A stretch of DNA of 64,000 nt. Origin: Candidatus Freyarchaeum deiterrae (GTDB lineage: Archaea > Asgardarchaeota > Jordiarchaeia > Jordiarchaeales > Jordiarchaeaceae). The translations under genes and the position numbers were made by a program. Shown here piece after piece: positions 3,568 to 20,043 of the stretch (the first letter of the stretch is position 1; every line of letters begins with the position of its first letter). Under the pieces are notes generated by a model that saw only the letters and a program-made list of their open reading frames with translations, did not search any database and was not told the DNA's origin. Where the stretch lies: assembly GCA_037305845.1 (NCBI GenBank), contig CP147778.1, positions 1,248,001 to 1,312,000 on the forward strand, read 5' to 3'.

Positions 3568-4839
3568 TTATTTTAGTTCTACTTCAAATTCGCAGTATTC
3601 GTCTCCCTTTGCTATGCACTTTGTTTCTCTGCACTTCCACTCCTTCTTTGTGGCTACCTGAAGAGTTCCGGCAAGAGCCCCCTCAATAAAAGTGCATACC
3701 GGATAATCCGAGTGACCGTATGATAAAGCGATCGTAGAAATAAAGGTTAATTTTAGTTTGCCCTCGTCAATACTTCCTTCCATTGAAAACGGTCTACCCC
3801 ATCCTGTGACCGTGATATATTTTATAACTTCTTCTAAGAGTTTTTTGTTGTTTATCTGGCGTTCAGATTCAATAAAACTGGATACGCTTATTCCCACACG
3901 TAAACCCGAATCGAAAATTATTCGTCGATACTCTTCATAGATGAGTAAACTTTTCATGGTTTCAAGAGGTAATGTGAAAACCTGTATTGGAGCGATGACA
4001 TGATTCCAACCGAACAACGAAACTTGTCCTAATTCGTTAAACGACATACCTTCTTTCAACTCATCAAAAGAGTCGTACAATGGGAATAGTGTGATGAAGT
4101 TGTCATGGGTGAATAAATACGCAAGTCTCTGATTCAGAATTTTATGAGCTTCACTCACTAAAGGAGTTCTTGAAACATGTACGTATGATTGCTTTTTATC
4201 ACCGATTGTTTCAAATCCAAGGTTTATTGCATAATCAACAAGGTGATTTAATGTGTTAATTACCTGTGGTTCATGAACATCACGATTTGCTATTCCTAAA
4301 AGTATACCGCCTTCTCTTTTAGTATCCATGGTTAGTTTTCGAATCATCTTTAAAACAGTTTTCGAATCGAAGTCAATAATTGAAGAACTTATATTTGCAT
4401 AAATAACAAGTATTGTTAGGTCTGGAAACAGCTGTTTGATTTGGTTTTTTGCGCCGTTTATTTCATAAATAATGCTATTTAGGTCATTCGCTATCCCTCT
4501 AATATTTTTAATACTACTATAGGTAGCGTTGGTTTTATTTTCGCCTGAAACCAAATCCAAGTAATAGAACCTGCCATCGTTTATAGAATTTTGAAATGCT
4601 GCATTCTTCTCATCGGAATAATTCTTCTTAAACTGCCTCTGAACTATATTGAAGGGCAAATTTGTATTAATAGTTATAACCGCCCCACCCTTCTCCACAA
4701 AATTCAAAGCAAGTAAGCCCGCAAGCCTATTTGCATCGTTTAGTGAAAAGGAATCAGAAGCCAACAAAATTGACAAACCATCATACAGGCGCCCTAAAGT
4801 TTTATCAATGTAATCAATTCCCGTTTTACGAATCTTCAA
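3568..4839 (-). CDS. KaiC/RecA-like (degenerate P-loop) plus V4R domain protein, paralog 1
   Basis: N-terminal KTGIDYIDKTLG; C-terminal GWG...YPVC..IEG..G...CRETKCIAKGDEYCEFE. TTG start chosen after GAGGG (track start 4872). Confidence 0.75.
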   Translation of the reverse strand: MKIRKTGIDYIDKTLGRLYDGLSILLASDSFSLNDANRLAGLLALNFVEKGGAVITINTNLPFNIVQRQFKKNYSDEKNAAFQNSINDGRFYYLDLVSGENKTNATYSSIKNIRGIANDLNSIIYEINGAKNQIKQLFPDLTILVIYANISSSIIDFDSKTVLKMIRKLTMDTKREGGILLGIANRDVHEPQVINTLNHLVDYAINLGFETIGDKKQSYVHVSRTPLVSEAHKILNQRLAYLFTHDNFITLFPLYDSFDELKEGMSFNELGQVSLFGWNHVIAPIQVFTLPLETMKSLLIYEEYRRIIFDSGLRVGISVSSFIESERQINNKKLLEEVIKYITVTGWGRPFSMEGSIDEGKLKLTFISTIALSYGHSDYPVCTFIEGALAGTLQVATKKEWKCRETKCIAKGDEYCEFEVELK

Positions 4840-4937
4840 AACTAATCCCTCTCTCAATCCATTAAAAAACAAGTAATATAAATATTATCTTTTTTCCATT
4901 GGTAGATAAATAGATAGAACACCAAATTCGCGAATAC

Positions 4938-6209
4938 TTATTTTTCAACTTCTGCTTCAAATTCACATAACTCATCACCAGTCGCTATACAGTTTGTTTC
5001 TCTGCAAAACCACTTGTTTCCTGTAACGCCTTCTAAAATACCTGCCATAATGCTCTCAAATATCAGACTAACTTTATGATCAGATTTTCCGTAGTAAAGT
5101 GCAAATGTTTCAAAATAAGATATTTTGAGTCTACCAGACTCTAGACTTCCCTCCTTTTTGATTAGTCTTCCCCACCCTCGAATTAGTATATGGTTTATTG
5201 CTGCGTCTAGCAATTCATTTCCCTCTAGGCCATATTCTGATCTAAATAATTTTGTAATTTCCAGACCCACCGCTTTACCGAAATTTTTTATGAATTCTCC
5301 GCATTCATTTATTTCCAAATTTTTCTCAAGCTCTTTATACAATAATAAGAAAGTGTTTAGAGGTATAATCAAATATTCTATATTATGGATTGAAAGTGCT
5401 CCGCTCTCCCGATAAGAAATACTTCTTTTCAACTCATCAAAAACTGGAGCCAGAGAGGGAATTGTTGAGAAATTATTTTCAGAAATGGTATAAGCATATC
5501 TTTGTTGTAAATTTGTTATATTTGACTCTAAAATTGGGGATTTCAACACTTGAATATATGGTTGTTTTACTCCTCCATTTTCTACCGAACTGAGTTCTAC
5601 TACAAAGTCCGCAAAGTGCATTAATGTGTTTATTACGCGGTAATCATGCAAGTCGCGATTAACGAAGCCAGTGATAAGATATCCTTTTTGCTTTGCATTT
5701 GTTGTCAGCTTTCTAAACATTTTTAAAACGGGTCCTGGGCCAAAATCAATGATGGAGGAACTAAAATTCTGGTACGAAACCAAAACGGGGGTTTCTGGAA
5801 AACTTTTTTTGATCTGATCCCTTAAAAAAAGAATTTCGTACATGATTTTATTCTGATCGTTATTTATTCTGATTATACCTTTAAGATTATTCAAATCCTC
5901 CTTGGAAGCTTCCTCCGAAGCGATATCTACATAGTAAAACCTACCTTCATCCAAACTTTTTTCTAAAAAAGGAAGTTCTTCCGCCGCAAACCTACTTTTA
6001 GTATCATCAAAAAGCATGGAAAATGGTAGGCTTGTACTTACAAAGATACAACCTGCTCCTTGTTTAATGTGGTTTAGATTAATTAAATCGCAGAGAGTTA
6101 TCGTATCGTTGAGAGTCAAAGAATCGCATATGAACAATATTGAAGTACATTCATCTAGATTGCCCAGAGCCTCGTCTATAAAATTTATTAAAGTTTTTTC
6201 TATCTTCAA
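4938..6209 (-). CDS. KaiC-like pseudo-ATPase plus V4R domain protein, paralog 2
   Basis: Same motifs (GRFYYVD, NFSSSIIDF, VLKMFRKL, GWG, CRETNCIATGDELCEFE). Confidence 0.75.
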   Translation of the reverse strand: MKIEKTLINFIDEALGNLDECTSILFICDSLTLNDTITLCDLINLNHIKQGAGCIFVSTSLPFSMLFDDTKSRFAAEELPFLEKSLDEGRFYYVDIASEEASKEDLNNLKGIIRINNDQNKIMYEILFLRDQIKKSFPETPVLVSYQNFSSSIIDFGPGPVLKMFRKLTTNAKQKGYLITGFVNRDLHDYRVINTLMHFADFVVELSSVENGGVKQPYIQVLKSPILESNITNLQQRYAYTISENNFSTIPSLAPVFDELKRSISYRESGALSIHNIEYLIIPLNTFLLLYKELEKNLEINECGEFIKNFGKAVGLEITKLFRSEYGLEGNELLDAAINHILIRGWGRLIKKEGSLESGRLKISYFETFALYYGKSDHKVSLIFESIMAGILEGVTGNKWFCRETNCIATGDELCEFEAEVEK

Positions 6210-6244
6210 ACATATACCTCATTAAGTTTCAATTCATGAATAGT

Positions 6245-7531
6245 TCACTGATTTTCAATAAGCTTCAATTCAAATTTGCATTTTTTGTTTCCCATGGCGA
6301 TACATTCCTTTTCCGTACAACTCCAACTGAGTGAAGTAATTTCTTTCAAGATTCCTTGAAGAATTCCTCCTTCCAACACGCAAACAGGATAATCGGATTC
6401 TCCATAATTAGCCGCAAATATAGAAAAGGCTTCTAAAGTTATCCTTTTGGATTTAATATTTCCCTCCAAAATGTTGAACTTACCCCAACCGGTAATTGAG
6501 AGGTGATTTAATGCAGCTTTAAAAAGTTCTTCGGCGTTTAGATCAAATTGGGGGGATAATGCTTTTATGATAAGTGTTCCTATCGAACCACCTACCCTTC
6601 CAATTATTTTAGTGTATTCGCTTTTTCCAAGTTTTTTTTCAGACTCTTTTAAGAGATGTAGTAAACTCCATATTTCGATAATAACATAATTTGTACCGTA
6701 AGCGGTGACCTCTCCTCTTTCAAGATAGGAAATATTTTCCTTTAACTCTTCGAAGGTTGTAGGAAGAGAGGGGATTGTATAAAAGTTATCTTCCGAAATT
6801 TCATAAGCGATTTTTTTGTAAAGGCTTTTTTCGGTGTCCTTCAACAGGGGAGTTCTATTTACTGACACGTAGGGTTGCTTTTTACCGCCGAGTATATCTA
6901 TTCCAAATTCAAGTATATAATCGGTAAAGTGAGTGATGGAATTGGTTACATTCTGCTCTTGCATTTCTCGATTCAAGATACCAAGAAATAAATCACTCCC
7001 TTGCTTAACATTCAAAATCAGTTTTCTTATCATGTTTAATACGACTTGAGGCTCAAAATCCACAATCAGGGAACTGATATTTGTGTGTAAAATTAGAACG
7101 GGGGCGTCTGAAAAGATTTTTTTGATTTGATTCTTTGCATTTAAAATTTCATACACTATTCGAGGAGGATCATTTACAACTTCCGTTATAAACTCTGAAT
7201 AATTGAACTTCTGGGTACTAACGGTTTCCTCTACAACAATATTAAGAAAATGCAATCTCCCTTCATTCATAGCCTTCTGAAGAATAAGCCTTTTCGCGGG
7301 CGATTGAAAATATAATGTTTCATTTACCGCCAAAGAGAAGGGAAGATTTTCATAAATAAGAACGCACCCCCCACCCTTTTCCAAAATGTTCAACGCTATT
7401 AAACTTCCAAGCTTCTGAGCATCATCTGCCGTAGCTGAGTCCGTGGAAAACATTATGGGTAAACCATCATAAAGAACACCGAGGGTTTGATCCACAAATT
7501 CTATTCCAATGTTTTGAATTTTCAATTCCAC
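6245..7531 (-). CDS. KaiC-like pseudo-ATPase plus V4R domain protein, paralog 3
   Basis: NISSLIVDF, VLNMIRKL, TGWG, YPVC, CTEKECIAMGNKKCKFE; SD GAGGAG. Confidence 0.75.
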   Translation of the reverse strand: MELKIQNIGIEFVDQTLGVLYDGLPIMFSTDSATADDAQKLGSLIALNILEKGGGCVLIYENLPFSLAVNETLYFQSPAKRLILQKAMNEGRLHFLNIVVEETVSTQKFNYSEFITEVVNDPPRIVYEILNAKNQIKKIFSDAPVLILHTNISSLIVDFEPQVVLNMIRKLILNVKQGSDLFLGILNREMQEQNVTNSITHFTDYILEFGIDILGGKKQPYVSVNRTPLLKDTEKSLYKKIAYEISEDNFYTIPSLPTTFEELKENISYLERGEVTAYGTNYVIIEIWSLLHLLKESEKKLGKSEYTKIIGRVGGSIGTLIIKALSPQFDLNAEELFKAALNHLSITGWGKFNILEGNIKSKRITLEAFSIFAANYGESDYPVCVLEGGILQGILKEITSLSWSCTEKECIAMGNKKCKFELKLIENQ

Positions 7532-7591
7532 ATCTCCTCAGAATAGGCAATAAAAGATAATCTGAAGTTGTTAAAAAAAATTAATGTTTGT

Positions 7592-8863
7592 TCAGGATTC
7601 TATCTGAGCCAATTCAAACTCGCAGTAATCATCGCCCATAGCTATGCACTTTGTTTCCTTACAAACCCATTTTTTCCCCGTGATTTCTTCAACAAGTCCC
7701 AGCAGGCTGCCCTCTATCAATACATCCACGGGCTTGTTTGATTTATCCCATTTTTCAGCTAGTGACGAATGGACCCGAATTTTTATTTTACCAGATTCAA
7801 GAGTTCCCTCAATACTTAATAGCCTACCATAGCCTCTAGCACCGCCGTACTTAATAGTTAACAGCAGTAAGCGATCATCTTTTATTTTGAATTCAGATTC
7901 AACCGCTCTAACGTTTTTGACCACAAATTCTCTACCTAGTTCTAAAATCGTTTTTCTATATAGTTCGTAATCAATATTTTTTTCCATGGCTTTTAGAAGT
8001 TCCGTTGTAAATTGGACTGGAAGTACAAGGTTTTGGGTTCCTAGTATTGAAACCTCTCCTTTTTGATAAAAAACCTGCCCATCTTCTAATTCATCTAGGT
8101 AGAAAGATATGGGTGAAAAGGTTTCAAACTTGTTCCCAGAAATGTAATATGTAAGTTTTTTAAACAGAATTCTTTTAGAAAATCCCACTATTGGTGTTTT
8201 AGTGACTTGAAAATAAGGACGCGGTGAATCGCCCTTTAATTCTAATCCAAACTCACCAGTATAGCTCGAAAATTGTTTCAGGATATTTGTTATTTCCGAT
8301 TCATGAACATCTCTGTTTACCAGCCCGATAAAGATGTCACTGTCCTGTTTTATTTTCGCAATCAGTTTTCGTAACATCTTTAAAACAGCTTTTGAATCAA
8401 AATCAATTATGGAAGAGCTTATATTATGATACAAGACAATAATTTTAGAATCAGGAAACTTCTCCTTAGTTCTATCCATTGCTTGGCTAGCTTCGTACAA
8501 TATCATATCCAAATCGTTTTTAACCAGTTTAACGCCACTAACTTCAGTTTTACCGGATTGCCCTTTATTAGATGTTAAATCTAGATAAGTGAAACGCCCT
8601 TCATTCATTGCTTTTACTAAAGCAGGAAATTTCTCAGGCAGAAAAAGTTGTTTAAATTTTTGACGACCTAAAAAATAGGGTTCATCTGTTTGAACTGCCA
8701 CGCAGGACATCCCCTGATCTATCAAATTAAGGGTAACTGACAGACTAAGCATCATCGCGTCGTTTAGCGTAGAAGAGTCTGCAGTAAAAAGCAGCACCTG
8801 CCCTCCGGAAATTTTACCCAAAGAAAAGTCTATAACGGGTATCTTAGTATCAATTACCTCCAA
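7592..8863 (-). CDS. KaiC-like pseudo-ATPase plus V4R domain protein, paralog 4
   Basis: GRFTYLD, NISSSIIDF, VLKMLRKL, RGYG, CKETKCIAMGDDYCEFE. Confidence 0.75.
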   Translation of the reverse strand: MEVIDTKIPVIDFSLGKISGGQVLLFTADSSTLNDAMMLSLSVTLNLIDQGMSCVAVQTDEPYFLGRQKFKQLFLPEKFPALVKAMNEGRFTYLDLTSNKGQSGKTEVSGVKLVKNDLDMILYEASQAMDRTKEKFPDSKIIVLYHNISSSIIDFDSKAVLKMLRKLIAKIKQDSDIFIGLVNRDVHESEITNILKQFSSYTGEFGLELKGDSPRPYFQVTKTPIVGFSKRILFKKLTYYISGNKFETFSPISFYLDELEDGQVFYQKGEVSILGTQNLVLPVQFTTELLKAMEKNIDYELYRKTILELGREFVVKNVRAVESEFKIKDDRLLLLTIKYGGARGYGRLLSIEGTLESGKIKIRVHSSLAEKWDKSNKPVDVLIEGSLLGLVEEITGKKWVCKETKCIAMGDDYCEFELAQIES

Positions 8864-9068: not shown

Positions 9069-10241
9069 TTAGCTAGATTTTTTATAAGCAGTTTGACTCA
9101 TCTTGATTCTCTTATTTATGGTATTTCCTTCGTTATCTTCGAAGACCAATTGGAAACTTTGAACATTTTTTTCACGTAATTCATAGTTTAATTCTACTTC
9201 TTTTCCTTCAGGCACCTTTTTGATTCCCAGCATGAAAGGAGCGGTTTCGAATAGTTCCTCTTTTATTCCCACTACTTTTATGGTGACTCCTTTGAGTTCT
9301 TGTTTTGCGTTATTAGTCACAGACATACTTAAGTTGTCTTTATCTTTTTGTTCTACTGAAACCTCTAATGATTGTGGTAATATCTTCCCTTTCAAGATAC
9401 CCTGAGCTTTTGATTCCTCAAACAATCCTTCTTCTTTGACTGGCGGTAATATTATGTTTATGGGTATCTGGAATTTAATACTTTCACCAGTAATCTTTGT
9501 ACATGTGATGTCAAGGTACCAGTAGGAGTAAGCTCCGAATGTTTGGGACCATTGAGTTCTTTCGGTGGGCTCCCACAAATAGTTGTAGCTATGCTCGGCG
9601 TACTGCGGTACCCTAATAGATAGATAGCCCTGTGTGGGGTTCTTTTCCTCAACGGTAGTTAAAGTCTCCGGAGGGTTCTTTTTAATATGAACACAAACGT
9701 TTGCGTATTTTGGGCAAGAACAATTAATGTTCGAGTCGTTAACCAGATCTACTGTTAATAGCTTTAGTCCCTCGGTTTTATAATTCAGTTTAATTACCTC
9801 ACCGGGTAGAACTGCATCCTTTTCGATGCTGAAGCCCATACCCTTTATAGTGATAGAAACAGGATTAGGTTCAAATTTTTGTTCCGATCTTATCTTTATT
9901 GGTTCTTCTGTGACAATTTTGAATGCTTCACCGTGTTTATCTGGGTGTCCCACTGATAGAGTTGCTCTGATAAGGTAGTGCACATTTTTTCGAATAAGTG
10001 TGGGGACAGCTCTTCTGCTTATGGTGAGTTCACGTTCTCGAAGGTAAGTTCCGTTTTCAAAAAGGCCTTCACAGAATATTTCACTTGTGGATAAGGGAAG
10101 TTCATTTCCACAAGGTAGGTTAGTGAGGAGTGTCACCCCACCCCACCAAACCTTTGTATCCTCTGCGAAGTCAAACTTTGCTATGGTCCTTATGTTGGAA
10201 CCAGCCGCTGCAGACTCTTTTGCGCGCACCTCTATTGACAT
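9069..10241 (-). CDS. Arrestin/Vps26-fold-like protein with C-terminal shared beta-sandwich domain
   Basis: Two arrestin-type halves (LTISRRAVPTL...VHYLIRATL; VLPGEVIKL...IRVPQYAEHS...WYLDI...QIPINI). C-terminal NN...EELFET domain. Confidence 0.55.
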   Translation of the reverse strand: MSIEVRAKESAAAGSNIRTIAKFDFAEDTKVWWGGVTLLTNLPCGNELPLSTSEIFCEGLFENGTYLRERELTISRRAVPTLIRKNVHYLIRATLSVGHPDKHGEAFKIVTEEPIKIRSEQKFEPNPVSITIKGMGFSIEKDAVLPGEVIKLNYKTEGLKLLTVDLVNDSNINCSCPKYANVCVHIKKNPPETLTTVEEKNPTQGYLSIRVPQYAEHSYNYLWEPTERTQWSQTFGAYSYWYLDITCTKITGESIKFQIPINIILPPVKEEGLFEESKAQGILKGKILPQSLEVSVEQKDKDNLSMSVTNNAKQELKGVTIKVVGIKEELFETAPFMLGIKKVPEGKEVELNYELREKNVQSFQLVFEDNEGNTINKRIKMSQTAYKKSS

Positions 10242-10277
10242 TAATAACTACCCTAAAGATTGAATTATTAATATTTT

Positions 10278-11195
10278 TTATCCACCCTCGGAGTGGGCTC
10301 TAACTACAAGGTCAGCAAACATAGACATGTCAGATAGCAGTGAGTCGATTTTCTCCTGCGCGCTCTTGTCCAGCTCTTGAGTTTTCATTATTAGTACAGC
10401 TATTATGAATTTGAATACGTGTAAGGAAATCTCTTTATCTCCTTCTAATCCGTGCCCAGAAAATTCAGCGGATTCGGACATGAAGAAGTTTTCCCTAAGA
10501 TTATTACACGCGCTTATGAAATCTCTCAAGTCACCTCTCAGCTGCAATCCTGTGCTAATTCCCTGAACGTTGTGTACAATCACGTTACCCGAAGTATCGC
10601 TGATGATAATTCTGGCAGGAATTTCACTCAACTGTTTCTGAGCAGTCTCAACATGCTTTTCCAGAGACTTGTAACTAGATACCATTATGTCACGAAAGAT
10701 TTCGGCGAGCCTTTCCTGCTCATAAATGGAGGTAACATGATAAACAGGATTCCATTCGGCGAACAAATCTAGGAATACGCCCTTAGCCATTTCGAGATTG
10801 GTATCAAGAAGTTCTTTCTCGTAGTCTTGTATGTCATACTTGTGGAAGAAAATATGTACTGCTGGTTTAATCTTATTCTTCTTAAAGAGGTTCATTATAT
10901 CGGTAAAGTATTTCTTTGCCTCATCGAAACTCTCAGGCTCATGAAGATCTATAATGGGAATTAGAATATCAGTTCCTGAAAATACCTTTGGATCATTCAT
11001 GTAAGATTCTCGGTACTGTTCCTGACCTCCGAAATCAAATATCGAAACTTCCAAACCTAGGAAGGGGTGTCTTCTTATCTCATACATTATAGTCGGCGCT
11101 GCACCTTTGGTTTGTTCTGGTTTTCTGCCAGCAAATGTAGCCATGTATATGCTTGTTTTCCCACATCCTGATAAACCAACTAATGAGATTTTCAA
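10278..11195 (-). CDS. Rag/Gtr-like small GTPase with C-terminal roadblock-like domain
   Basis: G1 GLSGCGKTS, G2 APT, G3 DFGGQ, G4 HKYD, G5 TSIY. C-terminal IIISDTSGNVIVHN. TTG start after GGAGGT (track start 11231). Confidence 0.85.
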   Translation of the reverse strand: MKISLVGLSGCGKTSIYMATFAGRKPEQTKGAAPTIMYEIRRHPFLGLEVSIFDFGGQEQYRESYMNDPKVFSGTDILIPIIDLHEPESFDEAKKYFTDIMNLFKKNKIKPAVHIFFHKYDIQDYEKELLDTNLEMAKGVFLDLFAEWNPVYHVTSIYEQERLAEIFRDIMVSSYKSLEKHVETAQKQLSEIPARIIISDTSGNVIVHNVQGISTGLQLRGDLRDFISACNNLRENFFMSESAEFSGHGLEGDKEISLHVFKFIIAVLIMKTQELDKSAQEKIDSLLSDMSMFADLVVRAHSEGG

Positions 11196-11240
11196 TGCTT
11201 CTACCTCCGCACACATTAGATTCAAATTCATATTTAACGT

Positions 11241-12743
11241 TTATTCTTCCGATTTTTTACCTTCAATTTCTTTTACACTAAGCTTTTGCGACAGAATAGT
11301 TCCCTGCCTGTCAGAAATAACTAACAGGTATTCCTTATCATCCTTAGCCCTTGGATAAGTAAATTCGAGCTCTTCAAACGGATACCATGTTTCAATATCC
11401 GTTTCCCAAGCGTTGGTCTCAAATAAATCTTCCAAGTGAGTAATCCTCACTTTCACATTACTTATCGTCTTTCCCGAATTATTCGCTAAAGTTAATTGAA
11501 GCATAGTATTGCCATCGACAAACTGAGCCTCTGAAACCTTTAGCAGCTTTTTAAGAGCACGCTCAACTACATTTTCCTTTTCTGGAGGCGTATCCTCAGC
11601 TAAAGGTATAGCTCCCTTTCGTTCCACAGGTTCTGGAACCCCTGCTGTTGTTTGAACATACTTCAGAACATAGGTGTGACGCCGTTTCTCAGTATACATT
11701 TGTACCTTTTTTAACCTCGCAAGGTTCAGAACCTTTTGAAGACCTTCCCTGTCTAAAGGCTTTAGAGTCAAGTAGCCGTTTTCCACAGCGTCCTCCAGAA
11801 GCTCATTAGCCACGCCTGTCCGAACTAGTATCGTTGAGTACCCCTCAGAAGAGCCCACGCTACCAACTGATATATCCGCCATTTCTGAAGTAAGATCTCG
11901 ACAGTAGTGACAACTCGTCGAACGAAACTTATCAAGCTCCTTAACAGGCCAACCACTAGTCTTATCAGAATCATAAAATATGTTAAACTTCCCAGAAGCG
12001 ATACTCATCTTATGAATAGAACTCAGAGGAATCCCCTGTTCTCCCTCAAAAAAGTCCTTAATCCCCTCATAAGTGAAGGAGTCCATACAAAACAGCCCAA
12101 CTTTAAGAATCTTAGACTTCATGAACAATTGAAGCAAGCCAAAGGGTTGGGACTGCATCTTAGCAACAGCATCAATATTACAAGGAGTACCGACAAATGC
12201 TATGGAACGATATCCCTTGTTTATCGCATCTACCATGGCTTCAACCGTCTGACTGTGAGAATAAACACTACCCGAAGACTTTAGAAGCTCCTCAGAACTG
12301 GTAACAATCCTCGCAACAGGCTTCCAAGGCTCCTCCTCACTCTTCATAGTAACAATCGCCGCATCTATTAAACCTTTATCCAGAGCGTACGACAAAAGAG
12401 AAGTAACAACACCACCATCTTGACCCTTCACCTTATCCAAAGCAGACTTGCCAACAAAAGCCGCAACATAGTCACCAACCAAAGACTTAATCGAAGTAAT
12501 CGTACGAGGGCAGTGTCTGTAGCATATGCCACAAGCCGTGCATTTTCCGACTAGCTTTGGCGTCTCATCCTCCATTACGAGGGCATGTTCCGGGCAAATG
12601 CTGATGCAGGTTCCGCAGCATGTGCAAACGCCGCTTCTTATTACTTCTTGGCTTAAGCGTCCGAAGTTTTCGAGTTTTTTTACTTTTAAAAGCCTTTCAG
12701 GAAATGTGTAGCTTATGTACCCTTTTTCCTCCTCATTTATCAT
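11241..12743 (-). CDS. FrhB-family Fe-S/F420-binding protein with C-terminal shared beta-sandwich domain
   Basis: CTCCGTCISICP, CTACGICYRHCP, QDGGVVTSLL, GTPCNI, GLFCMD, CHYCRD, ADISVGSVGS; about 130-aa C-terminal extension. ATG 12743 after GGAG (track start 12785). Confidence 0.85.
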   Translation of the reverse strand: MINEEEKGYISYTFPERLLKVKKLENFGRLSQEVIRSGVCTCCGTCISICPEHALVMEDETPKLVGKCTACGICYRHCPRTITSIKSLVGDYVAAFVGKSALDKVKGQDGGVVTSLLSYALDKGLIDAAIVTMKSEEEPWKPVARIVTSSEELLKSSGSVYSHSQTVEAMVDAINKGYRSIAFVGTPCNIDAVAKMQSQPFGLLQLFMKSKILKVGLFCMDSFTYEGIKDFFEGEQGIPLSSIHKMSIASGKFNIFYDSDKTSGWPVKELDKFRSTSCHYCRDLTSEMADISVGSVGSSEGYSTILVRTGVANELLEDAVENGYLTLKPLDREGLQKVLNLARLKKVQMYTEKRRHTYVLKYVQTTAGVPEPVERKGAIPLAEDTPPEKENVVERALKKLLKVSEAQFVDGNTMLQLTLANNSGKTISNVKVRITHLEDLFETNAWETDIETWYPFEELEFTYPRAKDDKEYLLVISDRQGTILSQKLSVKEIEGKKSEE

Positions 12744-13057
12744 ATTTTTCTCTCTCCTTTCACTAGTTTTCTCCGCTTTTTTCAAACGTAAATCCAGTCT
12801 TGCGATAACAATCTGTTGAGATTTGAGTATAGTTTTAATTCATTCCCACTATAGTTTGAATTGTATTATCGTCCAGTATATAAATTTTTTAGAAGACCCT
12901 TAGATTTACGTCGAAGAAGTTTGTAAATTTCAATATTACACATTTTTTCGTACTTAATACCTTTTCGATTGCCCAAAAAGGCTTAAAAAATGGTTTGTTT
13001 AGGGCGGAATTCGTCTATTTTTAGAACAAATTCATGTTTTAGAATGGAATTAGAAGG

Positions 13058-15079
13058 CTACTGTTCTTTAGATGGCCAAATAAAAACAGCCACAACCGCG
13101 CAGATGAGGAAAGGAGTTAATAAAAGCATAGTTCCCAGAGAAAAGAGGGAATTCTCCGTAGGAATCATTGTTATAGCCAAGATTATGGGAGTTACGGCTG
13201 GTGTTTGAACGCTTACGCTTTGGGCGTCTGAGAAGGTTTGATAGCCCTGTGAATCTGTTGCGCTGGCATAGAATACCATACTATTATTATTGAAGTAGGA
13301 GGAATCAATAACGAAGCTATAAGAGCCGTTAAGCAGGGGTATCGAATCAACGATTACTTTGTGATAATCGGTTACGACGAGTTCTAAGCTAATTACCCCT
13401 TGAGGATTACTGCAACATACATTGATGGTGAATTGATCTCCGGGGTTAATTTTACTGGGAGCATTTATGATGAAAGTTGTAGGTTGGTCTGTTGTCGTGC
13501 CCACGGTCAGAACAGTTGTGTTATACAGAAAATTGGGCTTTGTCACTATAATGCTATAATTCCCAGTCTGGGGTGCAGGGATTCTTATATTACCATTCGA
13601 GTCGGTAAGGTATGTGTGGTAATAACCCGTTCCCTGAATGCTAACCAAAGCTCCATTTACTGGGCTTCCCCCGTTACTCTGAATACTGATTTGCATTAAC
13701 TTTCCGGGGATTGGTGTAGATTCGGATATAATGCTCATATTTTGGGGGGTGCTGGTCCAGATTGGAAGTTCTGGGTCTCCCAGGAGATTGTAATCTAGGA
13801 ACTCTTGTCGGTACTCATAGTTTTGAGCCAGATTTGTTAAACCAACATCCTGATAGTATTGATACTTGCTCTGGTACAATGTATATCCTGGACGCTGGGA
13901 AAATAAGCCGTCGTTAGTTTTGAGAAGTGTTCCAAAGAATAACGCGTCTAAAAGAGAATCCGACAGGTCATTAATGTTATCCCCGCCAAAGCTTGTTCTC
14001 GCGGCCCCAATGTACGATACCGCTCCACCATTTGGATTTTTTAGCATGGCGCTTCCTATACTGTTCCCTGCATCCAGCTGTGCAGTTTCACAAGCTGAAG
14101 CAAAAACCATAGGCAATTCATAACCATTACTTGAACTCGCAGCATCCGTAGATGTATAGTAACTAGTGCCATATTCATCCCTTGAAACTGCTGTGGCTGA
14201 ACCGTGGGAGCAGAAGTTAACTATCGCGCTCCCATCATTTATTGCAGTAATAAAGTTGGCCTCAGTTAAATTATTATAATAATAAGGTGGATTATTGTCC
14301 CAAAATAGACTAGTAAAGGTCATGTTTAGTTCGGGAGGGATGACATAGTCACGGATATAACTTTCGATTCTCCACCCCTGGATATCACTACTTATTTCTC
14401 CTCCCGCAAAAACTGCTGTTTGCATCCAGTTCCCTGTGATATTTCCTAGGTCCTCTTCGTAGGTGAGCGTCTTGTTTATCATGGTTCCAAGTTCATTCGT
14501 GTTTGAGGCGGGCAGTCTTCCAACATATAGTTCCGGAATCCAATCCATACTACCGAACGCCCCATAGTTCCCGTCTCCATTATTGTCAAAGGTTCCATTC
14601 AAAGCCGCATAGTAATAATCGCTGGGAATAAGACCGTCTGGCGATCCGATATTGAAATATCTTGTTGGGATTAAAGTTGTATCTCCTGCTAATAGAACCC
14701 ATTGAATATTCCAATGGTTATATGCGTCTATCAGAAAGTTACGTATTTTTTCGGGTAGGTCTCTTCCAGTGTAGTTGTTGTTGATATAGGTTGTGTTAAA
14801 TATGGCGGTAGGTATGCCTTTCTGGGTTTTCCATTCCGCGAACTGTAAGAGATTAGTGTTGTTATCCCAGCCCGGCGGAGTTATTATTACGTATTGTGTG
14901 GTGTTTGTTTTCAGAATGATTGGCGTGGGAATGTTTTGTATTTGCTTATTTTGTTGATTTTGTGAAGTAGCCAGCGGAACCCAAGAATTAGGAGTAGGAA
15001 GGAATAGCAGGGGAACTGCTATAGTTATCAGAACTAATATGAAAGCTAGTTTTACGTAGGAAAATTTCAAGCCAATCAC
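13058..15079 (-). CDS. Membrane-anchored C25 (gingipain-family) cysteine peptidase
   Basis: WKTQKG, VLLAGD, SDYYY, ELYVGRLP, catalytic SHG and SAC, LLGDPEL. N- and C-terminal hydrophobic segments; many N-x-S/T sequons. Confidence 0.88.
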   Translation of the reverse strand: MIGLKFSYVKLAFILVLITIAVPLLFLPTPNSWVPLATSQNQQNKQIQNIPTPIILKTNTTQYVIITPPGWDNNTNLLQFAEWKTQKGIPTAIFNTTYINNNYTGRDLPEKIRNFLIDAYNHWNIQWVLLAGDTTLIPTRYFNIGSPDGLIPSDYYYAALNGTFDNNGDGNYGAFGSMDWIPELYVGRLPASNTNELGTMINKTLTYEEDLGNITGNWMQTAVFAGGEISSDIQGWRIESYIRDYVIPPELNMTFTSLFWDNNPPYYYNNLTEANFITAINDGSAIVNFCSHGSATAVSRDEYGTSYYTSTDAASSSNGYELPMVFASACETAQLDAGNSIGSAMLKNPNGGAVSYIGAARTSFGGDNINDLSDSLLDALFFGTLLKTNDGLFSQRPGYTLYQSKYQYYQDVGLTNLAQNYEYRQEFLDYNLLGDPELPIWTSTPQNMSIISESTPIPGKLMQISIQSNGGSPVNGALVSIQGTGYYHTYLTDSNGNIRIPAPQTGNYSIIVTKPNFLYNTTVLTVGTTTDQPTTFIINAPSKINPGDQFTINVCCSNPQGVISLELVVTDYHKVIVDSIPLLNGSYSFVIDSSYFNNNSMVFYASATDSQGYQTFSDAQSVSVQTPAVTPIILAITMIPTENSLFSLGTMLLLTPFLICAVVAVFIWPSKEQ

Positions 15080-15207
15080 TCTTGTTTTTATAAAAAAAAC
15101 AACGCATCAGGGGTAATTTAATTTTGTGTTGTAAGCATTTGATGAATTTTCATGAAGTTTTACGAGATTATTATGTTTTTGGTTTTTTGATAATTTTTGG
15201 TGGCTTT

Positions 15208-16257
15208 TTATTTCATTTCTTTTATTGAGATTCTTTTTACTAGTAGTTTTTGGGCTCCTTCTTCGATTTTTAGAATGTATTCGCCGTCATTGTCAACGCG
15301 AGGGTACTGGAAAACTAGTTCTTCGTAGGGGAACCAGATTTCGACCATTGTGTCCCAGGAGTATGTTTCGAAGAATTCTTCGATATGTGCTATGGATATT
15401 TTAATGCTATCTAAGCTTTTTTCGGAGTTGTTTTTGACAGTTATTTTCAGTTTTTTCTTGTTGTCAGCGAATTCAACACCTACCAGTTCTACGGGGCTTT
15501 CAGGAATGTGTTCAACGGCTCTCGTCTCTATTGCGCTTTTTCCGGATAATTCAACAGACCTTGCCTGTGGGCCGGTGACGCCGTACATATTGTTAAGAAG
15601 GAAGTATACTAGATTTTTCTGTTTCTCTACATCACTCTGTAGAGCATCCATTAATTCGGTGGATATTACGGGTATGGAAATGTCACATAGGTTTGAGAGA
15701 GTGTTTTCTACTTCTTCCCCGTCTTTGATATTTTTATGGTCTTCTTCGTTTTTTATGGGTTTGGTGCAGGCTAGGTCTTTCTCTATGAGTAAGTAGAGTT
15801 TGTCCTTCACATTTTCTTTGATTTTTTTGAGCAAAACGCTGAGTAGCATATCTCCTAATGGTTTGGCTACGCCAACTGGTACACTAACTATGAGGACGAA
15901 GACCTCTTCTGTTTCTGGGGACATGCCCGCTCTTTGTTTTTCTCTAGCTGATTTCGCCTTGAACTTTGTGGCGGCGTACACCTTCCCCCCAAATTCTAGG
16001 TCAACTCGATTCAGTCCCTCTTCTTTGAAGTCCTCTGCGCCAAGCCACCACACAGGATGCTTTTGGATTATCCTCAGTGTTTCTGTGTCATTCTTCAGGT
16101 TCTCTGGGCATGTAAACAAAGCGAGGTGCCCTTTGGCCTCATGGAAGTAGCATAGGTAAATTCCTATCAAACCCTCAAAAGTGTTGGTAGGAGGCTCTTC
16201 CCTCTTGCGCTCTAGTTCAAGGTCGTCGATTTCATTACTATTCGGATTTTTAGACAT
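15208..16257 (-). CDS. uDENN/longin-like protein (folliculin/NPRL2-type N-terminus) with C-terminal shared beta-sandwich domain
   Basis: GIYLCYFHEAKGHLALFTCP fits the longin/uDENN F-x(4)-G-x(6)-P hairpin. C-terminus aligns without gaps to that of 11241..12743. Confidence 0.6.
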   Translation of the reverse strand: MSKNPNSNEIDDLELERKREEPPTNTFEGLIGIYLCYFHEAKGHLALFTCPENLKNDTETLRIIQKHPVWWLGAEDFKEEGLNRVDLEFGGKVYAATKFKAKSAREKQRAGMSPETEEVFVLIVSVPVGVAKPLGDMLLSVLLKKIKENVKDKLYLLIEKDLACTKPIKNEEDHKNIKDGEEVENTLSNLCDISIPVISTELMDALQSDVEKQKNLVYFLLNNMYGVTGPQARSVELSGKSAIETRAVEHIPESPVELVGVEFADNKKKLKITVKNNSEKSLDSIKISIAHIEEFFETYSWDTMVEIWFPYEELVFQYPRVDNDGEYILKIEEGAQKLLVKRISIKEMK

Positions 16258-16368
16258 TTTAATGCACCAGAGGTAAATAGTGAATTAATGATAGCGGATT
16301 CATTTCTTGTATTATACGCTTCCCCATTTCTTAATTCTCGAGTTATGGAGTTTAGATTGTTTTTTATT

Positions 16369-16836
16369 TTAGGTGTCTGTTTCGGGGGTTTGTTTTTCCG
16401 TTGAATCCTTTGGTTGTAACTCGATTTCGTAATATCTTGTGTATTTCTTAAATTTGTCGACCCATCTTTTACTGATGACTCCTATGATTTTGCCTTCATT
16501 GTCTACCACTCCAACACGCTTCACCTTTGTTTTTTCAAATAGAGTTCTTAACTCCTCAATCGAAGCGTTGGGGCCCACTGTTATAATGTCCTTAACCATT
16601 ACATCTCCTGCTTTATAACGCCTAGGATCTTTTTCTTTAGCCACCAGTCGGAATACAATGCCGTCCGTGATTAAGCCGACAACCCTTTCTTCATCATCTT
16701 TTACGAATACCGAGCTGATCCAGTTATCCACCATCAGCTGCGCCACTTTGGGAAGGGAGTCGGAAACATGGCAGGTTACCACTTCACGGCTCATGGCATT
16801 GACTATTGAAAACTTGTCTTTATCATCAGTCGACAA
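16369..16836 (-). CDS. Stand-alone CBS-pair protein
   Basis: AMSREVVT...VVGLITDG and VMVKDIITV...VVDNEGKIIGVIS. TTG start after GGTGG (track start 16875). Confidence 0.88.
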   Translation of the reverse strand: MSTDDKDKFSIVNAMSREVVTCHVSDSLPKVAQLMVDNWISSVFVKDDEERVVGLITDGIVFRLVAKEKDPRRYKAGDVMVKDIITVGPNASIEELRTLFEKTKVKRVGVVDNEGKIIGVISKRWVDKFKKYTRYYEIELQPKDSTEKQTPETDT

Positions 16837-17071
16837 TCTAAGACCACCAAGACCTTTGTGAATACATGAATACAACTATAAATTTAGCTTTTTATACCTT
16901 TTTAAGGCGACAGCATAAACTACTCTGTGCCTCGCACATGTTTTTGCAAATAGGGGGAATATAAATGTTTATCAATTCGTATTCTTCCTTTAGGTTGAAA
17001 AATTGAGGATAGAGTTAAAATCTGATTAGGTTTGTTAAATTAATTAAAATCCTGTTTTGGAGGGCGAAGTA

Positions 17072-18451
17072 ATGGTATTTAAACACCAGTACATACCAGC
17101 AACCGAAGATGACAAAAAGACAATGTTAGATGAGCTTGGAATCAAAAGTGTGGATGAGTTATACAGGGATATTCCGCATAAAATAAGGTTGAATAAGCGA
17201 CTTGATCTCCCTGAACCACTTGTAGAAGTTGATTTGAAGCGAAGTATTGAAAGTTTAGTGAACAGGAATGTTACTCATAAGGATATTCCTGTTTTTCTGG
17301 GTTCGGGTGTATGGCTCCATTATGTACCAGCGGTTGTGAAGACGCTTACGTTTCTTCCCGAGTTTCAAACTTCTTACACTCCTTATCAGTCGGAGGTGTC
17401 TCAGGGGATTCTTCAGGCACTCTTTGAGTATCAGAGCATGATATGCGAGATAACGGGTATGGACATAGCGAATGCTTCAATGTACGATTGGGCGTCTGCA
17501 CTCGGTGAGGCTGCACTGATGGCGGGAAGAGTGACAAAGAGGGAGGAGTTTCTAGTTCCGAGAATAATCCATCCTGAAAGAAAAGCCGCTCTCGAAACAT
17601 ACACCTATAAAATAATGAATGTTAGAGAGGTTCCCTATGTAAGCGAGACTGGAGTTATCGATATCAACGCCTTGGAAAGCATGGTTTCTAAAAAAACTGC
17701 GGGAATATACATAGAGAACCCCAATTATCTCGGAGTAATAGAGTTTGAAGTTGCCGAAATAGGCAGAATAGCTCGTGAAAACGACACACTGTTCGTTGTG
17801 GGGGTCGATCCAACATCTTTGGGTGTTCTAGCTCCTCCGGGAGAGTATGGAGCGGACATTGTGATAGGCGAGGGACAACCGCTTGGTATTGATCCGTCTT
17901 TTGGGGGGCCCCTAATCGGCTTATTCGCGTGCCGAGAGGACAAGACGTTGATGAGGAATATGCCAGGGAGGCTTATCGGTATGACCGAGGATGCGGAGGG
18001 AAATCGCTGTTATACAATAACGCTGCAAACCAGAGAGCAGCACATCCGTAGGGAAAGAGCTACGAGTAACATTTGCTCCAATGAGGCACTCTGTGCGGTT
18101 CAGGTGGCAATATATCTTGCTTGTGTAGGCCCTTGTGGATTGACTCAGCTGGGGGAAACTTGTATGGCAAATTCGAGATACGTAATGCGAAGGATAAATG
18201 AAATCGATGGATTTAAAGCGCCCCTTTTTGATTCAACTCATTTTAAGGAGTTCACAGTTAGCTCTCAGAAACCCGTTGATGAGGTTCATAAAAAGCTGTT
18301 GGAAATGGGAGTCCACGGGGGTAAAATTATTAAAGGTGAATTTCCGGAGCTCGGTGAAACAAGTCTATACTGCGTAACAGAGATTCACACCGTTGAAGAG
18401 ATGGACAAATTAGTTGAAGCGCTGACAGAAATTTCTCGCAACCCGGGATAG
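17072..18451 (+). CDS. gcvPA: Glycine dehydrogenase (decarboxylating) subunit 1
   Basis: TSYTPYQSEVSQG, NASMYD, TREQHIRRERATSNICSN. ATG 17072 after GGAGG. Confidence 0.96.
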   Translation: MVFKHQYIPATEDDKKTMLDELGIKSVDELYRDIPHKIRLNKRLDLPEPLVEVDLKRSIESLVNRNVTHKDIPVFLGSGVWLHYVPAVVKTLTFLPEFQTSYTPYQSEVSQGILQALFEYQSMICEITGMDIANASMYDWASALGEAALMAGRVTKREEFLVPRIIHPERKAALETYTYKIMNVREVPYVSETGVIDINALESMVSKKTAGIYIENPNYLGVIEFEVAEIGRIARENDTLFVVGVDPTSLGVLAPPGEYGADIVIGEGQPLGIDPSFGGPLIGLFACREDKTLMRNMPGRLIGMTEDAEGNRCYTITLQTREQHIRRERATSNICSNEALCAVQVAIYLACVGPCGLTQLGETCMANSRYVMRRINEIDGFKAPLFDSTHFKEFTVSSQKPVDEVHKKLLEMGVHGGKIIKGEFPELGETSLYCVTEIHTVEEMDKLVEALTEISRNPG

Positions 18452-18495
18452 GCAGCTAAAATTAGTAACTGCCAAAAGTTAGAGGAGATTAAAAA

Positions 18496-20043
18496 ATGGT
18501 TGATGCATTTAATCAGGCTACTTGGAAAGAAAAAGAAAAAGTTTTGGAACCGCTTGTCTTTGAAATAAGCGTGCAGGGTAGAGTAGGACATATCTTACCG
18601 AAACCATGCGAGAAAGTTACGGTAGAAGTTGGAGACGTGTTAAAGGATATACCTGAAAAAATCAGGAGAAAAAACCCTATCGGTCTACCGGAAGTCTCGG
18701 AACCTCAACTGATGAGGCACTATCTCCATCTCGCCCAGATGAATTACGCTGTAGACTTGGGATTTTATCCTCTAGGTTCGTGTACAATGAAATACAATCC
18801 AAAAATAAACGAAGAGATAGCTAAAATGGATAAAATTTCTAGACTTCACCCGTACCAAGATGTATCCACAATTCAGGGTGCTTTGGAGCTACTCTACAAT
18901 TTTGAAAAAATGCTCGCAGAGATTTCGGGAATGGGGCGAGTCACCTTACAGCCGTCAGCAGGAGCTCACGGTGAATTTACCGGTCTCTGTATTATAAGAA
19001 AATACCACGAGGAAAAAGGAGAATTAGAGAATAGAAGAGAGATAATTGTGCCTGATTCAGCTCATGGAACGAACCCAGCAAGCGTGAGTATGGCGGGCTT
19101 CAACGTTGTAACCATCCCCTCATCCACAGATGGGTGTGTTGACCTAGAAGCGTTAAGAAGCGCGACCGGAGAACAAACGGCTGGCCTAATGCTCACCAAC
19201 CCAAACACACTCGGCATATTCGAAGAAGACATACTAGAAATTTCCAACATTATTCATAATAGCGGCGGTCTCCTGTATTATGATGGAGCCAATCTGAATG
19301 GAGTCCTCAATAAGGTTCGACCGGGAGACATGGGATTTGACATTGTTCACTTTAACCTACACAAAACCTTTTCCACACCACACGGAGGAGGAGGGCCCGG
19401 CGCAGGCCCTGTGGGAGTAAAAAATGAACTAGTCTCATACCTACCAGTACCAACAGTTGAGTATGACGAAGAAAAGGGTGCCTATTATTTGGATTATAAC
19501 AGGCCTAAGTCGGTGGGGAAGGTAAAAGGATTCTACGGGAACTTCGGAGTCATTGTTAAAGCCTACTCATATATTCTTTCTCTTGGAACCGAGGGGTTGA
19601 ATGAGGTTGCTGAGGTTGCGGTTCTCAATGCCAATTATTTGGCAGAAAAAATCAAAGAAATACCGGGATTCAGCCTTCCCTATGCCACAAATAAACCCCG
19701 CAAACACGAGTGTGTAATAAGCGCGGCGCAGTTAAAGGCCGAAACAGGTGTCACCGCCTTAGATGTAGCAAAGAGAATACTGGATTTTGGAATACATGCA
19801 CCAGTTGTTTATTTTCCACAGATAGTTGAGGAGGCGCTGATGATAGAACCAACAGAAAGCGAAACCAAAGAAACACTTGACAGATTCATATCAATAATGA
19901 AGAAAATATCCGACGAGGCCTACAATACACCAGAAAAGATTTTGAGCGCCCCACATCACACCTCAGTGAGGAGAGTAAATGAAGTTATGGCGGCAAGAAA
20001 ACCAATCCTGAGTTGGAGAATGTATCAAAAATATAAGGAGTAA
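18496..20043 (+). CDS. gcvPB: Glycine dehydrogenase (decarboxylating) subunit 2
   Basis: PLGSCTMKYN, SAHGTNPAS, NLHKTFSTPHGGGGPG, IEPTESE. Confidence 0.96.
   Translation: MVDAFNQATWKEKEKVLEPLVFEISVQGRVGHILPKPCEKVTVEVGDVLKDIPEKIRRKNPIGLPEVSEPQLMRHYLHLAQMNYAVDLGFYPLGSCTMKYNPKINEEIAKMDKISRLHPYQDVSTIQGALELLYNFEKMLAEISGMGRVTLQPSAGAHGEFTGLCIIRKYHEEKGELENRREIIVPDSAHGTNPASVSMAGFNVVTIPSSTDGCVDLEALRSATGEQTAGLMLTNPNTLGIFEEDILEISNIIHNSGGLLYYDGANLNGVLNKVRPGDMGFDIVHFNLHKTFSTPHGGGGPGAGPVGVKNELVSYLPVPTVEYDEEKGAYYLDYNRPKSVGKVKGFYGNFGVIVKAYSYILSLGTEGLNEVAEVAVLNANYLAEKIKEIPGFSLPYATNKPRKHECVISAAQLKAETGVTALDVAKRILDFGIHAPVVYFPQIVEEALMIEPTESETKETLDRFISIMKKISDEAYNTPEKILSAPHHTSVRRVNEVMAARKPILSWRMYQKYKE

Follow-up and report, generated by a model that had tools for sequence, protein, structure and literature searches.

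A C-terminal domain of predicted Ig-like fold shared by three proteins encoded with a Rag-like GTPase in Asgard archaea

Introduction

Operons that combine a LAMTOR1-like protein, a Rab-like GTPase and a DENN protein, as well as NPRL2-like longin proteins, have been described in Asgard archaea (Liu et al., bioRxiv 10.1101/2020.10.19.343400). According to Tran et al. 2024 (PMC10933270), GTPase genes of MK-D1 are generally not found in operons with longin or roadblock genes, and it is difficult in Asgard genomes to match a GTPase with its regulator. The regulator of each Asgard small GTPase is largely unassigned, because the respective genes mostly lie outside operons (PMC10933270). Asgard archaea possess very large numbers of small GTPases and longin/roadblock proteins; the locus discussed here delimits a set of four to five of its own. 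It lies within a stretch of 64,000 nucleotides (the window) from Candidatus Freyarchaeum deiterrae (GCA_037305845.1, CP147778.1, positions 1,248,001-1,312,000). The set comprises a Rag-like GTPase, a folliculin-like longin protein, an arrestin-like protein, an FrhB redox enzyme and a CBS protein, which are co-inherited across many Asgard families. Three of these proteins, namely the FrhB, longin and arrestin-like members, end in the same module of ~95 residues, hereafter referred to as the tag.

We refer to the three proteins bearing the tag (the hosts) as FRH, LON and ARR, and to the GTPase as RAG; their coordinates are collected in Table 1, and residue numbers of the tag follow FRH. The open reading frames of the three hosts reported in an initial annotation of the window were all present, on the minus strand. 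Our findings indicate that the tag is very probably a private, unnamed domain family, which has a common fold and is characteristic of a Rag-GTPase module.

Results

We compared the three tails with each other at the sequence level. An ungapped alignment of the FRH and LON tails had previously been scored by hand at 36/93 identical positions; BLASTP returned an ungapped alignment as well, with 36/88 identities (41%, E 2e-29). By pairwise comparison, the ARR tail displayed 26% identity to that of FRH over 86 residues (E 4e-9), and matched that of LON with an E of 5e-5. We also derived one profile per host class from tags found in other genomes, and compared these profiles with each other. The ARR-tag profile matched those of LON-tag (98.6%, E 4.9e-16) and FRH-tag (98.9%, E 2.6e-17), while the LON-tag and FRH-tag profiles matched at 99.9% (E 2.6e-31). 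The third, more diverged copy claimed for ARR thus passed the profile alignment in which it might have failed. In profile-profile comparisons the tag failed to match the bodies of ARR, LON and FRH, or RAG. We rejected the idea that the tag represents a duplicated arrestin lobe, since comparison with the N- and C-terminal halves of the ARR body using hhalign gave a probability of only 0.1-17%. A six-frame search of the 3.58 Mb single-contig genome identified exactly three tag copies, at window positions 11247-11543, 15202-15492 and 9072-9374. Taken together, these results support the view that the tag is one homologous domain carried by three otherwise unrelated proteins.

We modeled the tag with AlphaFold2 using an alignment of 85 sequences. 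The model (predicted local distance difference test [pLDDT] 92, predicted template modeling score 0.83) consists of a seven-strand sandwich and a short terminal helix, and the tag folded alike within the model of full-length LON. We are confident that the predicted fold is an immunoglobulin (Ig)-like beta-sandwich of a common, generic type, as had been surmised from the letters alone. The accompanying proposal of a likeness to adaptin appendages was not specifically supported. Using VIA-align against 48,161 representatives, the GAE domain of BBS1 matched the tag with a Z of 8.3 (root-mean-square deviation [rmsd] 3.1, 89 residues), below the best matches at Z 9.7-10.3, which were to Ig domains of glycoside hydrolases, transglutaminase barrels and a Fanconi core subunit; Z values of 8-10 were reached by dozens of Ig-like domains unrelated to one another. 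The ESM Atlas returned the tag's own Asgard families at template modeling (TM) scores of 0.84-0.86, followed by GH2 Ig domains, together with a cluster labeled CARDB (18% of its members) at TM 0.62, for which there was no Pfam CARDB match. Apart from the tag's own families, the search for a specific structural relative by Foldseek, VIA-align, a second look with VIA and the ESM Atlas yielded nothing but generic Ig-like matches.

Sequence searches were likewise consistent with the earlier statement that the tag belongs to no described family. No Pfam family reached its cut-off for the three window copies, and over 85 tags Pfam produced scattered noise at E>=0.01, the most common being CBM49 (6 members, best E 0.032), while GAE_BBS1 matched 1/85 tags with an E of 0.0027. 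A search of PDB sequences with the 85-sequence tag profile gave a lone match at E 1.1. Neither the tag nor the module was described in the papers that were searched; subscription journals lay outside this coverage, hence their unpublished status is unproven.

RhoGDI, PDE-delta and UNC119 bind Rho or Arf-like small GTPases in eukaryotes, and Foldseek on PDB matched the tag to RhoGDI, FlaF/FlaG, UNC119 and GH3 domains at TM 0.45-0.55. We considered whether the tag is a sandwich resembling the guanine nucleotide dissociation inhibitor (GDI) family that binds lipid or membrane, in which case it would co-localize the hosts at a membrane rather than to each other. Although RhoGDI, UNC119 and PDE-delta were among the leading Foldseek matches of both the FRH tag and the LON model (E 2e-4 to 3e-3), their TM scores were only 0.45-0.53. 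Likewise, PDE-delta from the Arl2 complex matched the tag with a Z of 9.3 (rmsd 3.5, 90 residues; VIA-align), but this value was tied with many unrelated Ig-like domains at Z 9-10.3. Pfam and PDB searches revealed no sequence relation between the tag and GDI-like families, and RAG ends in AHSEGG, lacking a C-terminal cysteine for lipidation. Such C-terminal cysteines were also not found in the small GTPases of MK-D1 (Tran et al. 2024, PMC10933270), which further counts against a GDI-like tag. We consider this explanation unlikely.

We measured the distribution of the tag in an exhaustive hidden Markov model (HMM) search of 1.84 billion representative proteins using the profile of the three window sequences. 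A total of 87 matches were obtained, comprising 7 long repeat proteins and 80 others, whose host class was set by comparison of their non-tag sequence with the three window proteins. Nearly all of the full-length proteins among these 80 carry an FrhB, longin or arrestin-like body, while P0057, P0102 and short fragments match by the tag only. Convincing matches were therefore restricted to three architectures: FrhB+tag, longin+tag and arrestin-like+tag. A word-indexed protein search with the FRH tail recovered only close FrhB+tag orthologs; the other architectures required the exhaustive HMM search. The seven long multi-repeat proteins (P0036, P0027, P0046, P0048, P0068, P0078 and P0089), which are bacterial Ig-repeat proteins and in some cases have N-terminal signal-like sequences, passed E<1e-3 only by summation of weak repeats (per-repeat i-E 0.004-0.24). 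The repeats of P0036 hold an I-T-N-N-T-G strand resembling the N-N-S strand of the tag, which hints at a very distant relationship between the tag and the Ig repeats of P0036-type proteins.

In a census of 400 Asgard genomes grouped into families (f1, f2 and so forth), the tag was present in 180, mostly as three copies per genome. Presence was all-or-none by family: the tag was found in f1 (5/5), f2 (5/5), f11 (22/22), all genomes of f15-f18, f20 (130/135) and f21 (4/4), and in none of the genomes of f8 (0/31), f10 (0/12), f13 (0/12), f14 (0/19) and f19 (0/14). The source labels of the tag carriers, which are those of the submitters rather than placements made in this analysis, were Jordarchaeota/Jordarchaeia/Freyarchaeota/Freyarchaeia, Helarchaeota, Hodarchaeales and Loki's Castle sediment metagenome.

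A maximum-likelihood tree of 93 tags placed the LON tags on one side of a branch (support 96/89) and the ARR tags in a clade (100/99), with the FRH tags in between; the tree is unrooted, and no donor can be named. Since tag copies group by host, each fusion happened once and early, and was kept without recent shuffling. Positions N421 (98%), F441 (91%), E442 (87%), W453 (84%) and E457 (86%) are conserved across all three tag classes; the (L/F)FE motif is located at the hairpin that joins strand 3 to strand 4. The genomes of family f4 possess a single tag, on an FRH+tag protein that stands alone (Table 1). We found neither a RAG ortholog nor an ARR body in these genomes; a longin body was not searched for separately. 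In the tags of these two genomes (L/F)FE was replaced by EAPSN or EAPKD, while the N and W were kept. Loss of this motif would be expected if the FE hairpin were a contact site for partners that have seemingly been lost from f4.

These patterns bear on whether the tag is instead a passive appendage providing solubility, spacing or stability, which spread by local duplication and has no shared partner, its co-inheritance being due to the hosts. Persistence of FrhB+tag alone in f4 fits such a view, as do the generic structure matches of the tag, given that Ig-like domains often serve as passive spacers. Against it stand the retention of all three fusions across many Asgard families with tag copies clustering by host, the conservation of N, FE, W and E in all three tag classes despite an overall identity of 25-40%, and the lack of any other type of host protein among the 1.84 billion representatives. 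The FE motif, moreover, was lost in the sole lineage in which partners were not found. A purely passive role is thus, in our view, quite improbable.

RAG belongs with the Rag/Gtr GTPases according to several comparisons. It matched Pfam Gtr1_RagA with an E of 4.8e-18 (65.9 bits; cut-off 22), with Arf second at 1.1e-11, and its nearest named relatives in PDB were Gtr1 (4.6e-11) and RagA (3.1e-9), ahead of Arf/Arl at 2e-7. HKxD is the Rag-family form of the G4 motif NKxD; the G4 motif of RAG is HKYD, of which H130, K131 and D133 were invariant in 17 orthologs. Residues 190-317 resemble C-terminal fragments of eukaryotic Gtr1/RagA by language-model features only (0.85). The open reading frame as listed starts with ATG at 11231, whereas all orthologs and the Atlas record begin at residue 13 (MKISL), which makes TTG at 11195 the probable true start.

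Using a profile search at E<=1e-60, we identified a RAG ortholog in 156/400 Asgard genomes (E 1e-68 to 1e-165), mostly one per genome. Orthologs were present in f1 (5/5), f2 (5/5), f11 (19/22), all genomes of f15-f18, f20 (113/135) and f21 (4/4); families without the tag had none. All four genes together are present in roughly 150 genomes. We also surveyed gene order in 30 stretches from 27 other genomes, for which open reading frames were called and classified. FRH+tag directly adjoined RAG wherever an inspected stretch held both (f1, f2, f11, f15, f17, f18, f20, f21 and f32), and ARR+tag came after RAG in most of these stretches. LON+tag, usually accompanied by the CBS gene, flanked the cluster in f1, f2, f15, f17 and f21. 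In the window, the FRH, RAG and ARR genes run in the same direction, separated by 9 and 36 bases. We found no second Rag gene in the inspected clusters, and a homodimer is possible. Family f11 displayed a distinct arrangement: RAG lies on the opposite strand, adjoining FRH+tag, and a second, divergent longin+tag stands in place of ARR+tag, with no ARR body found by the ARR profile (Table 1). Taken together, tag and GTPase occur in the same families with RAG beside FRH+tag, in agreement with the link to Rag/longin loci put forward in the initial annotation; the opposing case, in which the tag is a widespread known family devoid of such a link, was not seen.

FRH was correctly assigned to the FrhB type from the outset (Pfam FrhB_FdhB_C 1.4e-43, FrhB_FdhB_N 5e-23). 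Among 28 orthologs, its QDGG motif and twelve cysteines (C40, 43, 46, 50, 68, 71, 74, 78, 188, 219, 278 and 281) were invariant; this number of cysteines would be enough for two ferredoxin-type clusters together with the FrhB cluster, and FRH looks like an active redox protein. A tag-less FrhB paralog and a polyferredoxin-like gene are present upstream in the window, on the plus strand. In the f2 loci L036, L037 and L051, the ARR gene has a tag-less FrhB paralog as its neighbor, encoded on the opposite strand. Loci L035, L040, L058 and L059 contain further tag-less paralogs no more than a few kb away.

The longin assignment of LON was borne out by its model, in which strands 32-39, 43-50, 85-89, 92-101 and 118-127, with helices between and after, form the longin topology beta-beta-alpha-beta-beta-beta-alpha. 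VIA-align matched residues 26-204 to folliculin of the lysosomal folliculin complex with a Z of 10.6 (143 residues, rmsd 3.2), followed by Sec22 (10.3), a Lokiarchaeota longin (10.2), a GATOR1 chain (10.1), and VAMP7, DENND1A and FNIP2 (range Z 10.6-9.4). The loop between the last two of these strands, S103-x-R105-x-K107-x-R109-A-G111, is conserved at R105 (31/36), K107 (32/36), R109 (31/36) and G111 (32/36). The R105/R109 loop is a candidate arginine finger, and may hold a counterpart of FLCN R164 or NPRL2 R78. The divergent longin+tag of f11 lacks the S-x-R-x-K-x-R-A-G loop. LON failed to match Pfam DENN or NPR2; instead, its longin domain is followed by helices, a disordered linker and the tag. 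With a pLDDT below 50, residues 225-252 behave in the model as a flexible tether between two confident domains, confirming for LON the linker-like segment that had been noted ahead of the tag.

A CBS gene adjoins longin+tag in 12 inspected loci (L034-L041, L050, L051, L054 and the window). In L040, L041 and P0024 the two are fused into longin-tag-CBS proteins of 631-641 amino acids, a rare case of an internal tag that was observed in two families, Helarchaeota by source label. Three small contigs (depth 2) from a Nanopore metatranscriptome of the same wetland study map to 16061-16260, 16322-16633 and 16670-16887, covering the 5' end of the LON gene and the CBS gene; the absence of cover elsewhere is uninformative, and DNA carry-over is possible.

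The arrestin-like character of ARR is weakly supported. Pfam Arrestin_C matched 17/29 members of the ARR family below threshold (best 3.4e-5), the language-model features of ARR scored 0.86-0.88 to arrestin clusters and 0.84 to Vps26 clusters in the Atlas, and a PDB profile search returned a lone arrestin-domain protein at E 0.3. The initial label of an arrestin fold for the third host therefore stands as a weak likeness. Residues C44, C174, C176 and C183 were invariant in 29/29 sequences, forming a C...CxC...C pattern, and ARR gave a weak match to the SWIM zinc finger (E 0.048). This pattern suggests a metal site, either Zn or Fe-S, which would be unusual for an arrestin-like protein.

Other genes surround the cluster in the window. 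A gene for a Peptidase_C25 (gingipain-type) protein (Pfam 1.8e-64) lies between FRH+tag and LON+tag. It was observed at the cluster only in f1 and f2 (L036, L037 and L051), and for this reason looks like a lineage-specific insertion; its product looks extracytoplasmic, as judged by a hydrophobic segment at its start and another at its end. Both features bear on a further explanation, in which a modifier or turnover machinery common to the hosts, such as a protease, ubiquitin-like system or chaperone, uses the tag as a recognition handle, leading to co-regulation of the hosts rather than their assembly. A C-terminal tag on a flexible linker is the usual layout of such a handle, and a peptidase gene does lie inside the cluster in f1 and f2, but its restriction to these loci and the likely location of its product argue against it, as does the finding that no other modifier gene was conserved in the inspected neighborhoods. 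We regard this explanation as very improbable.

Directly downstream of the cluster are four tandem paralogs of 423-434 amino acids with a V4R domain at the C-terminus (Pfam 1e-13 to 8e-16); Tran et al. 2024 (PMC10933270) place V4R in the TRAPPC3/Bet3 superfamily. These were not conserved neighbors of the module in the other genomes that we inspected, where a single weak match was observed in L059. Genes for subunits of the glycine cleavage P-protein (first GDC-P 9.2e-114) adjoin the CBS gene in divergent orientation; in the other inspected loci, their association with the module was not seen to be conserved.

Table 1. Coordinates of the tag copies, their hosts and neighboring genes. Positions are those of the window unless a locus or protein identifier is given.
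Feature	Position	Strand	Details
Tag copy 1	11244..11546	-	FRH (P0002) residues 400-500; model pLDDT 92
Tag copy 2	15211..15495	-	LON (P0003) residues 255-349; BLASTP, six-frame search, AlphaFold2 model
Tag copy 3	9072..9374	-	ARR (P0001) residues 290-390; most diverged copy
Tag strands	P0002:396-500		6-14, 19-26, 32-43, 46-58, 63-69, 76-83, 86-94; then short helix
FRH (P0002), FrhB-type iron-sulfur flavoprotein	11241..12743	-	500 amino acids: 2x[4Fe-4S] ferredoxin segment, FrhB_N, FrhB_C, linker, tag
RAG (P0004), Rag/Gtr-like GTPase	10278..11231	-	317-amino-acid open reading frame; Pfam Gtr1_RagA
ARR (P0001), arrestin-like protein	9069..10241	-	390 amino acids; four invariant Cys and C-terminal tag
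LON (P0003), folliculin/NPRL2-like longin protein	15208..16257	-	349 amino acids; AlphaFold2 pLDDT 80.7
LON longin domain	15646..16182	-	Residues 26-204; model and structure matches
LON disordered linker	15502..15585	-	Residues 225-252; pLDDT below 50
CBS-pair protein	16369..16875	-	Pfam CBS 4.6e-23
FRH+tag alone (f4)	L056:8444-10030, L057:8259-9692		One tag copy per genome
Tandem longin+tag pairs (f11)	L038:11839-14033, L039:11811-13906, L050:6445-8557		Hodarchaeales by source label
Longin-tag-CBS fusions	L040:10777-12672, L041:10696-12615, P0024		631-641 amino acids
Polyferredoxin-like gene and tag-less FrhB paralog	89-1426 and 2072-3520	+	Upstream
Four V4R paralogs	3568-8863	-	Directly downstream
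Peptidase_C25 gene	13058-15079	-	Between FRH+tag and LON+tag
Glycine cleavage P-protein subunit genes	17057-20043	+	Divergent from CBS gene

Discussion

We lean modestly toward the view that the tag is a common docking domain that gathers its three hosts at one Rag-centered complex, and each of the rival explanations discussed above accounts for less of the observed pattern. We infer docking or co-assembly, binding, the roles of sensor, GTPase-activating protein (GAP) and effector, and the direction of signaling from genomic association. Under the docking model, a tag on a flexible linker would hang from the FrhB flavoprotein with its three Fe-S cluster motifs, from the longin protein with its Arg/Lys loop, and from the arrestin-like protein with its four cysteines. 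The tags would bring these proteins together, either by tag-tag association or by way of a shared receptor site, and the center of the complex would most likely be the mostly single-copy Rag/Gtr-like GTPase encoded between the hosts. Redox state, by way of the FrhB protein, and adenylate state, by way of the CBS protein, may provide inputs, with the longin protein acting as a GAP-like regulator, the GTPase as the switch and the arrestin-like protein as an output adaptor. The complete scheme, in which the tag uses its FE hairpin as the binding site and links the redox flavoprotein and the CBS-associated longin GAP to a Rag switch with arrestin-like output, as a TOR-less forerunner of eukaryotic Rag sensing, is tentative, and is probably not correct in every part.

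Several points weigh against the docking model. The case for binding by the tag is a genomic one rather than a physical one; prediction of a four-chain complex of full-length RAG and three tags, each chain with its own alignment and the LON tag as the partner, gave an ipSAE of 0.00 in both runs and, being without controls, speaks neither for nor against binding. The predicted fold is common and implies no function alone, as matches at Z 8-10 span Ig domains of glycosidases, transglutaminase barrels, PDE-delta and the GAE domain of BBS1. Related genomes are not independent samples, such that the phyletic match of tag and GTPase amounts to ~10 families with the module versus ~20 without it, and not to 400 observations. 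Similarly, the argument from motif loss in f4 represents one lineage and one evolutionary event. The exchange of ARR+tag for a second longin+tag in f11 indicates that the composition of the module is not fixed, and LON+tag of f20, the largest family, is often separated from the other module genes by 13-50 kb or more.

If the complete scheme is correct, this would be the first case in which a cognate sensor, GAP and effector are assigned to an Asgard small GTPase. The locus opens the questions of whether Rag-type signaling with a longin GAP existed before eukaryotes, and whether Rag signaling was first coupled to redox/energy state rather than to TOR.

With respect to known systems, the operons described by Liu et al. 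(10.1101/2020.10.19.343400) are similar in that a conserved Asgard neighborhood pairs a small GTPase with Roadblock/longin-type regulators. They differ in that their GTPase is Rab-like while the one discussed here is Rag-like, and in that their description includes no FrhB protein, arrestin-like member or shared tag. As a small C-terminal beta-sandwich on a flexible linker and a possible docking platform, the tag shares its layout with the ears of adaptins and GGA and the GAE domain of BBS1. It has no significant sequence relation to them, its structural score is no higher than those of many unrelated Ig-like domains, and the same domain is present on three proteins rather than on one adaptor. 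RhoGDI, PDE-delta and UNC119 share with the tag an Ig-like sandwich of similar size, but at TM ~0.45-0.53 and with no sequence similarity, and the GTPase encoded here bears no lipidation motif.

The closest parallels are eukaryotic Rag/Gtr together with FLCN-FNIP, or with NPRL2-NPRL3 of GATOR1/SEACIT. As in those systems, a Rag-family GTPase is encoded with a longin protein, whose best structure matches include folliculin and a GATOR1 chain and which bears an arginine loop between its last two strands, and the CBS protein and redox enzyme provide a nutrient/energy-sensing context. Unlike the A/C-type pair of eukaryotic Rag proteins, most genomes encode one ortholog of the GTPase, and LON contains neither the DENN domain of FLCN nor the C-terminal domain of NPRL2. 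In addition, we noted neither Ragulator-like nor TOR-like genes in the cluster. Its fixed members include an FrhB flavoprotein and an arrestin-like protein, and three accessory proteins bear a private tag that is absent from the eukaryotic components. By analogy, the module may work like a Rag-longin GAP pair; it is a member of neither FLCN-FNIP nor GATOR1.

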